Assembly (NCBI GenBank): GCA_017536505.1 | Contig: JAFXHG010000012.1 | Coordinates: 52,541 to 116,540 of the forward strand | DNA: 64,000 bases | Direction: 5' to 3' | Origin: Bacilli bacterium | GTDB lineage: Bacteria; Bacillota_I; Bacilli_A; RF39; UBA660 | Position numbers: made by a program | In this document: positions 60,001 to 63,000 of the stretch, in pieces | Layout of the letters: each line of letters starts with the position of its first letter | How positions within the stretch are numbered: the stretch's first letter is position 1

Positions 60001-63000
60001 TATTTTAACAGCGCCTATCTCAATAATAGTATCCCCACTATTCGGATAAAGTCCTGTCGTTTCTAAATCAAATACTACATATGAATCAGACAATAAAGTT
60101 TTTTCTTCTACCATACTTCCTCCAAAAATTAAAAAGCCGGAAGAGCGATGCCCTGAATCGAATAAAACCTAGTCTCCCAGGTGGGCATCACATCACAACT
60201 TTTAGGATCCCTAAATTAATAGGTCTTCTACACCAGCTATGAATTAGATTCCCTATATCTTCGATTAGTAGGTTTTTCATAAGGGTTATATCGCATCTTC
60301 CAGCAATTTAATTATATCATTTTTAAAAATCATATTCAAGAGAATTTTTAATTTTCTTTATCTTCTTCCAATTCTTCTTTATATTCCTCTATTTCCTGAT
60401 ATTCAGTTACATCTTCTACTACATTAAAAAATATATTAAGAGTTATAGAATCACTGTGCTTAGTTTTGTTTAATATTTTATAATCTTTTACATATTCACT
60501 TTCATCTAGATTTTCTTCCATCTTGTTTTTAGCAAGATTTACCGCTTTATTTATTAACTCTTCATCTGTATTATTTTCATCTATAATTATAGTTTCTAAT
60601 TGTTTCTGTTTAACAAATTTTATTGGAAGTAAATTATTTTTTAATATAGTTTTTTCTTTAATATTTTTACTATTATATTTATTAAAATTAAATAATTCAA
60701 TATCTTTACCTAAAAACTTAATAACTAATACTTCTTTACTATTACCAGTTTCTTTTACCTCTTTATATTTATATGGATATGTAATTGTTACTTTATACCA
60801 TGTTTCTCCATAAATAGTACCAATACTACTTACTGTATCTTTAATATTTTCATTTAAAGTAATATATCCACTAACAATAACATCACCCTTTTTTACATAT
60901 GAATCAACTTCTTTGATGATTTGTCCACTTGATATATTCATATCACGAATAACGCAATCTTTTTTAGCAATTATATTTCTTAAAGGAGTTTTATCTTTAA
61001 TATCATTCTTTATTCTAGATTCATATCTAATAATATATTTAGTTCCAATACTATCTATTTCTAACCATTCTAATTCATCTTTATGATTATTTAATAATTT
61101 ATTTTTTATTTCTTGTAATCTTATATAATTTTTTTTAAATTTATACTTCTTAATCCCTAATTGTTCTAATTCCTCAAGTAAATTTTTTTCCATTTTAGAA
61201 TCATTAGTAACTACATCTATTTCAAATATAAGACTTGTTACTAAATATAAAGACACTAAACTAATAAGTATAAACATTATTATATATCTATTATTTAATA
61301 AATTATTTTTAGTTCTAATAATTCCATAATAATCTATTATTTCAATTTCATATATCGTTTTTATTTTTATTATTTTATCATAATCGTATTTATATATTTT
61401 TATATTTATTTCATCATTAGATATGTATTTTATATCTAATATTTCTATATTATTATTTTTTAATCTTTTTATAAACCTTTCTATATTATGACCTTTAACT
61501 TTTATATTTAACTTGCTTTTTATTAAATAGAGTACATTATTTTTCAATATATCACCTGAATTCTATATTACTAAAATTACCAGTTATTAATATTTCACTA
61601 CTTAAAAGTTTAGATACAACTAAATTACTACCTTTAACTATTACTTCTCCATTTTCTACTTTAACTATTATTTTATTAGAATCAAAATGACCAATATCTT
61701 TATAATTAACAATATTAATTTTATTATTTACTATTGTAATCTTTAAATCATTATCTAATACATAAGATCTAATACCATTAATTATATTCAAAATATCACC
61801 TATATAATTTTATTTATGAAATTAAAAAAAATACGAATAATCGTATTTTTTTTATTGAAACTATTACATTTTTAATACATTTTCTATATAGCATTTGCCA
61901 CATAAAGGTTCATAACTTGCTTCTAATCCATCAATAGCTACTTCTTCTCCGCTTTTTACATATTTTCCATTTATTACTCTTGCATTAAATTTAGCTCTTT
62001 TACCACACTTACAAATAGTAATAAGTTCCTCTAATTCATCAGCTAATTCTATTACTGCTTTTGACCCCTCAAAAAGTTTTCCTTTAAAATTAGTTTTTAA
62101 TCCATAACAAATTACTGGAATATCTTTTGTTTTAGCAATAATCCATAATTCTTTTATTTGCTCTTTTGTCATAAATTGTACTTCATCTACCAATATACAA
62201 TTTATATTATCTAATTTTAATATATCTTTTAATTTTTCATCATAATCAAGTAATATATCTACTTTTCTTTGTATACCTAACCTAGATACTACATTTTTAT
62301 CTCCTTTTTTATCTACAGCAGGTTTAATTAATATAATTTTCATGCCTTTTTCTTCATAATTATGTGCGACTTGTAATAAAGCAGTTGTCTTACCACAATT
62401 CATTGCTCCAAATCTAAAATACATTTTTGCCATAAATACCTACTTCCTAGCTCTCGGATGAGCGTTTAAATATACATTTCTTATTTTTTCATTAGTTAAA
62501 TGGGTGTAAACTTGAGTAGTTGATAGATTTTCATGCCCAAGTAGTTCTTGCACACTTCTTAAATCAGCCCCTTCATTTAACATGTGAGTTGCAAAAGTAT
62601 GTCTAAGTACATGGGGTGATATTTTTATCTTTATTCCAGCTATAATAGCTGAATCATCTACTACTTTTCTTATTTCTCTATCATTAATTTTTTTTCCTGT
62701 TTTACTAAGTATTAAATATTCACTATTATTTTTATTTAGTATGGGATAACTTCTTTTTAAATATAGTTCTAATAAATTTAAACAAATATTTCCAAAATAT
62801 ACTATCCTTTGTTTGTTACCTTTTCCATCTATTACTATAGTTTTATTAGATATAGATATATCACTTAATTTAATATTTGTTATTTCACTAACACGTATTC
62901 CTGTAGAATATAATATTTCAAGTATTAAAGAATTTCTAAGCCCAACAAAACTATTATTATCATAAGCCTTAAGTAATTTTTCAACTTCTTCAAAATTCAA

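Follow-up and report, generated by a model that had tools for sequence, protein, structure and literature searches.

The 64,000-nt window analysed here (the whole stretch of DNA, from an uncultured Bacilli bacterium) carries on its minus strand a structured region immediately upstream of a gene for a DnaQ-like exonuclease, which raises the question of whether this region is a trans-acting 6S RNA gene or a regulatory leader of the gene behind it. The small 6S RNA imitates an open promoter and sequesters the housekeeping RNA polymerase. The original prediction, made from the sequence, favoured 6S RNA, named a long attenuator as the alternative, and proposed an Rfam search and folding as tests. 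Scanning the whole window against Rfam 15 revealed a match to RF00013 (6S/SsrS) at 60130-60309 (-) of 70.1 bits (E 8.5e-12; gathering score 46.4) that spanned model positions 1-187 of 187 and was not truncated. No other RNA family, including riboswitch and leader families, matched at 60130-60309, and this was the one 6S copy found in the 64 kb. We conclude, with a probability of roughly 0.93, that the region is a canonical 6S RNA gene of the ssrS type, closest to Bacillus 6S-1. Family membership, a conserved promoter, structural covariation, two alternative folds, and synteny were demonstrated in silico.

As far as can be read from sequence, every defining trait of the 6S family is present. 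RF00013 members are rods of ~160-200 nt with covarying closing and apical stems, and the RNA here is such a rod of ~174 nt. It appears to be an independent gene, with a TTGAAT-17-TGnTATAAT promoter and, in homologues, a U-run after the closing stem. The central bubble is unpaired in both the Rfam and the RNAalifold consensus, and an open fold was computed near the minimum free energy (MFE).

The promoter and the transcript outline were found as originally claimed. A -35 box TTGAAT is followed after a 17-nt spacer by the -10 hexamer TATAAT (60316-60311, -), which is preceded by TG (an extended -10). The predicted +1, G60304, lies six nt past the -10 box and is the first nucleotide of GCUGGAAGAUGCGAU; this sequence pairs with AUCGCUCUUCCGGC (60149-60136), and the 3' end of the RNA was placed in the U-run UUUUU directly behind it (60135-60131, -). 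Promoter-like hexamers were not significantly enriched in this AT-rich DNA (12 found vs. 11.3 expected), and the promoter call therefore rests on conservation across loci: 10/10 orthologous loci had kept both the promoter and the precise distance from it to the 5' end of the RNA. The GC enrichment over the surroundings (0.39 at 60120-60299 vs. 0.15-0.26 in adjacent 180-nt intervals) and the long irregular hairpin of the original prediction were likewise recovered, the 181-nt fold having an MFE of -58.4 kcal/mol compared with -40.1 ± 4.2 for dinucleotide shuffles (z = -4.33; 0/200 shuffles as stable).

A metagenome scan with the pattern TGAAAAACCTACTAAT-N(65-95)-CCACCTRG retrieved 43 loci by bubble motifs, with the stems not used in selection. 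An RNAalifold consensus on 43 distinct sequences comprised 34 pairs, 21 of them with compensatory changes. Standard pairs occupied 96.8% of cells, compared with 31-51% when partners were slid by 1-3 columns; double-change cells numbered 195, compared with 55.9 ± 8.8 in shuffles, and 0/500 shuffles matched any of five covariation measures. The closing stem consists of 9 bp, one unpaired U, and 5 bp (14 bp in total). Compensatory changes were seen at 12/19 pairs of the apical arm, and the 3'-bubble hairpin (helix 6) was 98% paired with one-sided changes only. Apart from this small 3'-side hairpin, the centre of the consensus was single-stranded. The 5' bubble strand TGAAAAACCTACTAAT was also invariant in ten loci that were retrieved through the downstream protein and not through the RNA, and its invariance there is therefore independent evidence of constraint.

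With G60304 numbered as nt 1, the 5' strand of helix P2 is UGAAAAACCUA (nt 26-36), and the Rfam alignment pairs 5'-AAAACC (nt 29-34) with 3'-GGUUUU (nt 136-141), a pairing that by analogy corresponds to helix P2, the downstream duplex of characterised 6S RNAs. The same alignment placed CCUAC opposite E. coli CCGAU, and alignment to E. coli U44 suggests that synthesis of the product RNA (pRNA) starts at C37. The predicted pRNA is 5'-GUAGGUUUUUCAUA, its predicted 5' end reading 5'-GUAGGUUUUU, with GG at positions 4/5; this GG has been reported to be conserved across 6S RNAs, beyond those of lactic acid bacteria (PMC8414754).

Folding revealed two competing states. With P2 forced, the open form had -56.6 kcal/mol, nt 26-36 paired, C37 at the bubble edge, and a bubble ~15 nt long on the 5' side; the central bubble that had been sought by folding is thus found within 1.8 kcal/mol of the MFE. 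The unconstrained MFE structure is a collapsed form in which nt 24-38 are single-stranded, ACCUGG/CUAGGU forms a hairpin (123-138), and AAUCGAA (39-45) pairs with UUCGAUU (143-149). Blocking nt 24-37, as a mimic of bound pRNA, yielded the same collapsed fold. The 3'-bubble hairpin and helix P2 compete for GGU. In B. subtilis 6S-1, P2 is unwound as the pRNA is made from C40 onwards, the 3'-bubble hairpin is stabilised, and a collapse helix joins the distal 5' bubble strand and the P2 3' strand (PMC8876501). In these folding models, the two nearly isoenergetic forms would be counterparts of the open state and the pRNA-collapsed state published for that RNA.

The putative collapse helix was also conserved among the homologues: anchored on its conserved CG, it formed 5-8 Watson-Crick bp in 41/43, with a mean of 6.4 bp compared with 4.7 bp for strands swapped between lineages, and its two main solutions were AAUCGA/UCGAUU and UUAACGA/UCGUUAA. 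Cross-bubble pairs that seemed to be broken in loci L007 and L008 of a nine-sequence alignment were traced to an alignment offset, and the anchored test showed the helix to be kept there. A generic longest-helix metric between the bubble strands gave no better value than shuffles (6.8 vs. 6.0) in this AU-rich sequence and was discarded as uninformative.

Polymerase binding, expression, and pRNA synthesis with its start site are what we infer from these features, and the working model runs as follows. Transcription from the extended -10 promoter of sigma-A type would begin at G60304 and yield an RNA of ~174 nt, which would fold into a rod whose conserved central bubble lies between the closing stem and the apical arm. 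As in characterised homologues, the open-bubble form would mimic an open promoter and sit in the active site of the housekeeping holoenzyme of RNA polymerase, and this occupation would damp sigma-A transcription as nutrients run out. When nucleoside triphosphates return, the polymerase would use the RNA as a template from about C37, copying the P2 5' strand into the pRNA; the freed 3' strand would then form the ACCUGG/CUAGGU hairpin and the AAUCGAA/UUCGAUU collapse helix, leading to polymerase release. The closing stem and U-run would stop most transcripts, and those that leak through would be the only evident source of mRNA for the exonuclease in this clade.

To place the RNA in its genomic context, we searched the exonuclease protein against species-representative genomes and obtained 50 loci. 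The closest public-genome relatives were uncultured gut metagenome-assembled genomes labelled Bacilli, Bacillota, or "Tenericutes". Nine loci encoded a stand-alone ~200-aa protein (L001-L008 and L037; 62-90% identity), and 9/9 of these had an Rfam 6S match upstream (54-82 bits) ending ~15-35 nt before the start codon. In the ten-locus alignment, the -35 box, TGnTATAAT, the 5'-end spacing, both bubble strands, the U-run, and GGAGG-ATG were conserved. Another 40 loci (L009-L049 except L037) proved to be exonuclease domains inside ~1,500-aa PolC open reading frames (ORFs); they had no 6S RNA upstream and were dropped from the synteny count as paralogues. A GC-rich stretch ~270 nt upstream had suggested L009-L049 as carriers of a divergent 6S RNA, and a permissive Rfam search of ten of them was empty. 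L050 was an unrelated 229-aa ORF (30% identity) without a 6S match.

The exonuclease gene was directly downstream of the RNA in 19/43 metagenomic loci, and about 20/43 copies preceded unrelated genes with their own promoters. One group had a ThiF-family (TcdA/YrvM-like) gene 3' of the RNA, and another a RelA_SpoT-domain gene downstream with SPFH and Yip1 genes upstream. In these contexts the RNA ends in its own U-run and the next gene is preceded by a TTGAC...TATAAT promoter. The Rfam 6S threshold was passed by 9/10 metagenomic copies tested (48.6-83.3 bits), seven of them outside the exonuclease context; the copy below it, L080, is a near-twin of L087 (48.6 bits). A U-run directly followed the closing stem in every homologue with sequence there.

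These contexts bear on the question of the leader. The structured region might act in cis, as a leader or attenuator dedicated to the exonuclease gene, and not in trans as a 6S RNA, since the exonuclease start lies 21 nt past the closing stem with no promoter between them and the RNA has two alternative folds, as attenuators do. However, the same RNA, at or above the Rfam gathering score and with its own U-run, precedes ThiF/TcdA-like or RelA_SpoT-domain genes that have separate promoters; no Rfam riboswitch or leader family matches here; and the alternative folds open or close the central bubble, as those of 6S-1 do, neither including nor excluding the terminator stem. Outside this clade the RNA is not linked to the exonuclease gene; the leader explanation is therefore not supported, and we regard it as extremely improbable. 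The attenuator of the original prediction therefore does not stand as the identity of the RNA; it is partly right in that, in this clade, a promoter of its own would not fit before the exonuclease gene, and the stem and U-run probably gate its transcription.

The product of the downstream gene was correctly named in the original prediction. Its ORF matched Pfam RNase_T (1.3e-34) and TIGR00573 (134 bits vs. a cut-off of 71.5), and the DEDDh catalytic residues D16, E18, D102, H158, and D163 were all invariant. The nearest structures were PolC proofreading domains (PDB 9qpc, 1.2e-33; 2p1j, 6.4e-31), and the protein was 56-57% identical to the exonuclease domain within PolC of sister lineages. polC was not found in the window or the retrieved clade loci, where only the exonuclease region matched; the stand-alone gene may be either a duplicate of the PolC proofreading domain or a copy split off from it.

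The 27 exonuclease-linked loci comprise the window, nine loci from genomes, and 17 distinct junctions from metagenomes. In 27/27, the closing stem is followed in turn by the U-run, 10-15 nt, the Shine-Dalgarno (SD) sequence, and ATG, with ~20-35 nt between stem and start codon and no room for a promoter. The SD sequence GGAGG was kept in all but a few of these loci, which had GGAG or AAGGAAG. A sigma-70-type consensus scan detected no promoter-like site on the coding strand from 60311 to 60114 and no sigma-70-like promoter on the coding strand inside the 6S gene of L001. Since there is no space for a separate promoter, we infer that the exonuclease mRNA probably comes from transcripts that start at the 6S promoter and read through. 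How much transcription reaches the exonuclease in this clade would then probably be set by the closing stem and U-run of the 6S gene, and the arrangement implies that a 6S-exonuclease transcription unit heads the spoIIGA-sigE locus.

Two other accounts of this junction accept the 6S RNA. In one, the exonuclease gene is independently expressed from a hidden weak or non-consensus promoter, or by another sigma factor, and the adjacency is transcriptionally meaningless. The promoter scan covered the sigma-70-type consensus only, the locus contains sporulation genes (yqfD upstream, spoIIGA-sigE downstream) at which alternative sigma factors act, and exonuclease-linked copies do not have clearly weaker U-tracts than stand-alone ones. 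On the other hand, no promoter-like site was found inside the 6S gene in either the window or L001, the structurally constrained 3' half of the 6S RNA has little freedom to encode one, and the tight stem-U-run-SD-ATG order was kept in all 27 loci despite divergence of the exonuclease to ~60% identity. We consider independent expression unlikely. In the other account, the mature 6S RNA is cut by RNases from a longer 6S-exonuclease or yqfD-6S-exonuclease precursor and is not made by termination. This would be consistent with the lack of an evident terminator separating the 6S promoter from the stop codon of yqfD (60348), and with a closing stem that is a long-range helix and not a compact hairpin, which is why it escaped the terminator scan; in B. 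subtilis, RNase J1 and 3' exonucleases generate mature 6S-1 from a precursor (PMC10578484). The U-run directly after the closing stem, present in every homologue including those before an independent gene, is an intrinsic-termination signature and argues against it, and we hold processing to be doubtful, if the stronger contender of the two.

Several points weigh against the reading of this region as a canonical 6S RNA gene that also drives the exonuclease. The MFE structure of the free RNA is the collapsed and not the open form, although energy-model error is large enough to cover this gap of 1.8 kcal/mol. Homologues realise the collapse helix in essentially two sequence versions, hence few independent events, and its support is moderate. 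Because the 43 metagenomic loci were retrieved with the bubble motifs, the invariance of these motifs there is partly built in. Read-through rests only on the absence of promoter space, and U-tract length showed no robust difference between linked and unlinked copies (weaker U-tracts in linked copies, p = 0.04 and 0.31, from a noisy automated U-run measure and non-independent samples). The transcript ends given here are predicted ones.

Whether the 6S RNA and the PolC-derived DEDDh exonuclease form a functional operon heading spoIIGA-sigE in this clade of uncultured spore-forming gut Bacilli is a further question. A functional coupling is possible, synteny being what points to it, and we rate the functional operon as rather improbable. 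If it exists, exonuclease dosage would be set by leakage of the 6S terminator and tied to growth phase and to the activity of the 6S promoter; the enzyme might have 6S RNA itself as its substrate, through 3'-end trimming or pRNA removal, or might be a trans-acting proofreader or repair nuclease at entry into stationary phase and sporulation.

Comparison with characterised systems revealed most likeness to B. subtilis 6S-1, with which this RNA shares the rod and the sigma-A promoter and, as predicted here, a pRNA start where the bubble begins on its 5' side (C37, compared with C40 in 6S-1), P2 unwinding, a 3'-bubble hairpin, and a collapse helix. It differs in length (~174 nt vs. ~190 nt), in a full 3' hairpin that competes with P2 for GGU and is closer to the E. 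coli scheme, and in its yqfD/exonuclease/spoIIGA-sigE neighbourhood; judged from these 64 kb, it may correspond to either the 6S-1 or the 6S-2 paralogue. The predicted pRNA has GG at positions 4/5 like that of E. coli 6S (AUCGG...). In E. coli, ssrS and ygfA are co-transcribed and 6S RNA is processed from that transcript. As there, a protein gene here stands right after the 6S gene and would rely on transcription through it; unlike there, the protein is a DEDDh exonuclease and not a 5-formyltetrahydrofolate cyclo-ligase, and a U-run follows the closing stem, making leaky termination likelier than obligatory processing. The 6S RNAs of lactic acid bacteria share the 6S-1-like structure, TATAAT promoter, 3' terminator, and conserved pRNA 5' sequence, whereas they are reported to be monocistronic between rarA and uspA (PMC8414754), neither of which flanks the RNA here. 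In the B. cereus group, ssrSA-ssrSB resembles the arrangement proposed here in that a 6S RNA is co-transcribed with the next gene from one upstream promoter, the partner there being a second 6S RNA and here a protein gene; a link between 6S-1 and sporulation efficiency has been described in the same group (PMC7726162).

Published 6S neighbourhoods include rarA/uspA in lactic acid bacteria (PMC8414754), ygfA, which is syntenic with 6S in Proteobacteria (PMC9130861), and aspS/tcdA or recQ/azoreductase in the B. subtilis group, where one 6S gene is flanked by aspS and the gene for tRNA threonylcarbamoyladenosine dehydratase (PMC7726162). An exonuclease neighbour was unmentioned in the neighbourhoods compared, the main 6S synteny survey lying outside this comparison. 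Sister lineages of our organism keep 6S beside a ThiF/TcdA-like gene. Because the B. subtilis-group gene adjoins tcdA, the TcdA context looks ancestral, and the 6S-exonuclease arrangement looks derived and specific to this clade.

The gene is thus a standard 6S gene whose only unusual trait is an exonuclease gene so close behind it, probably dependent on read-through. For 6S biology this has little bearing, as Rfam-based annotation would label the gene and its anatomy closely follows that of B. subtilis 6S-1. Within a large radiation of uncultured, very AT-rich gut Bacilli, the analysis records a 6S subtype that is well conserved yet varies enough in nature to support the collapse helix that mutagenesis in B. 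subtilis had led to being proposed. It also adds, after E. coli ssrS-ygfA, a second example of a protein gene apparently dependent on transcription through 6S, and a 6S-exonuclease unit directly upstream of the sigma-E operon may be of interest for 6S effects on sporulation timing. The features are listed in Table 1.

Table 1. Positions in the window of the 6S RNA gene, its structural elements, and the associated downstream features
Feature	Position	Strand	Basis or remark
-35 box TTGAAT	60339-60334	-	Promoter scan; TTGAAT, TTGAAC, or TTGACA-like in 10 orthologous loci
Extended -10 TGaTATAAT	60311..60319	-	T, G, T, A, A, T columns invariant in 10-locus alignment
6S RNA gene, ~174 nt	60131..60304	-	Rfam match, fold z, covariation; exact ends predicted
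Closing stem, 5' strand (nt 1-15)	60290..60304	-	9/9 helix-1 pairs with compensatory changes
Predicted pRNA template (nt 24-37)	60268..60281	-	Rfam alignment; includes P2 5' strand, start C37 (60268)
Central bubble, 5' strand (nt 37-51)	60254..60268	-	Unpaired in Rfam and 43-sequence RNAalifold consensus
Putative collapse helix, 5' strand AAUCGAA (nt 39-45)	60260..60266	-	MFE and template-blocked folds
Apical stem-loop arm, internal and terminal (nt 52-122)	60183..60253	-	Helices 2-5, 95-100% of cells paired
3'-bubble hairpin ACCUGG-GAGA-CUAGGU (nt 123-138)	60167..60182	-	Fold and consensus; flagged terminator-like by scan
Helix P2, 3' strand UAGGUUUU (nt 134-141)	60164..60171	-	Rfam alignment, forced fold
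Putative collapse helix, 3' strand UUCGAUU (nt 143-149)	60156..60162	-	MFE and template-blocked folds
Closing stem, 3' strand (nt 156-169), AUCGCUCUUCCGGC	60136..60149	-	Terminator-like 3' end with U-run
Shine-Dalgarno GGAGG of exonuclease gene	60119..60123	-	12 nt past closing stem
Stand-alone DEDDh (DnaQ/PolC-exo-like) 3'-5' exonuclease, 199 aa	59515..60114	-	Pfam, TIGR00573, catalytic residues
Conserved hairpin and U-run before spoIIGA	58836..58866	-	ΔG -8.4 kcal/mol, z = -3.1

On the minus strand, genes for a tyrosine recombinase, thymidine kinase, a YabP-family protein, and YqfD lie upstream of the 6S gene, and those for the 199-aa exonuclease, a 193-aa protein, SpoIIGA, and a sigma-E-like factor lie downstream. 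This sporulation-gene context indicates that the host, with a GC content of ~20-25%, is a spore-forming member of the Bacillota. The block 6S, exonuclease, spoIIGA, and sigE is conserved clade-wide, and YqfD is found upstream of 6S only in the nearest relatives. In other relatives spoIIGA directly follows the exonuclease gene. The intervening 193-aa ORF of the window (58885-59466, -) has no Pfam or NCBIfam match, possesses its own promoter (TTGAAC-18-TGaTATAAT, 59514-59485, -), and was otherwise seen only in L002 and L003 (49-51% identity).

The hairpin before spoIIGA reads AAAAAACGACAC-loop-GTGTYC followed by a U-run and was found at the junctions of L001, L004, L005, L037, L051, L055, L059, L062, and L079. 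It lies directly after the exonuclease stop in relatives and after the inserted 193-aa gene in the window, and it is probably the terminator of the 6S-exonuclease unit. An ACGACA (58839-58844, -) stands 21 nt upstream of a TATAAT, followed by GGTGA and an ATG at 58814; this ACGACA-21-TATAAT arrangement may resemble the long-spacer, Spo0A-dependent spoIIG promoter of B. subtilis. The mechanically assigned start of the spoIIGA ORF (GTG 58849) is probably too far upstream. No consensus Spo0A boxes (TGNCGAA) were found in 57000-61000.

In one sister lineage (L057, L058, L061, L064-L066, L068, L070, L085, L089, L092, and L093), 6S lies between SPFH/Band-7 and Yip1 genes on one side and the RelA_SpoT gene on the other, with a VanZ-like gene also downstream. 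The RelA_SpoT gene is small alarmone synthetase-like, so that 6S adjoins a putative (p)ppGpp synthetase gene there. The short metagenomic contig of L090 carries a second, inverted exonuclease fragment upstream of yqfD and 6S (2-100 and 683-1279, oriented), probably an assembly artefact or a local rearrangement.

Elsewhere in the window, the minus strand carries two T-box leaders (43809-44038 and 49564-49747; 141 and 112 bits), and four tRNA genes were located at 43627-43783 (-), 47761-47834 (-), and 51522-51595 (+). A full-length OLE (ornate large extremophilic) RNA (RF01071), in what seems to be the genome of a very AT-rich gut member of the Bacilli, was detected at 3640-4247 (-) with 395 bits (E 1.4e-112).

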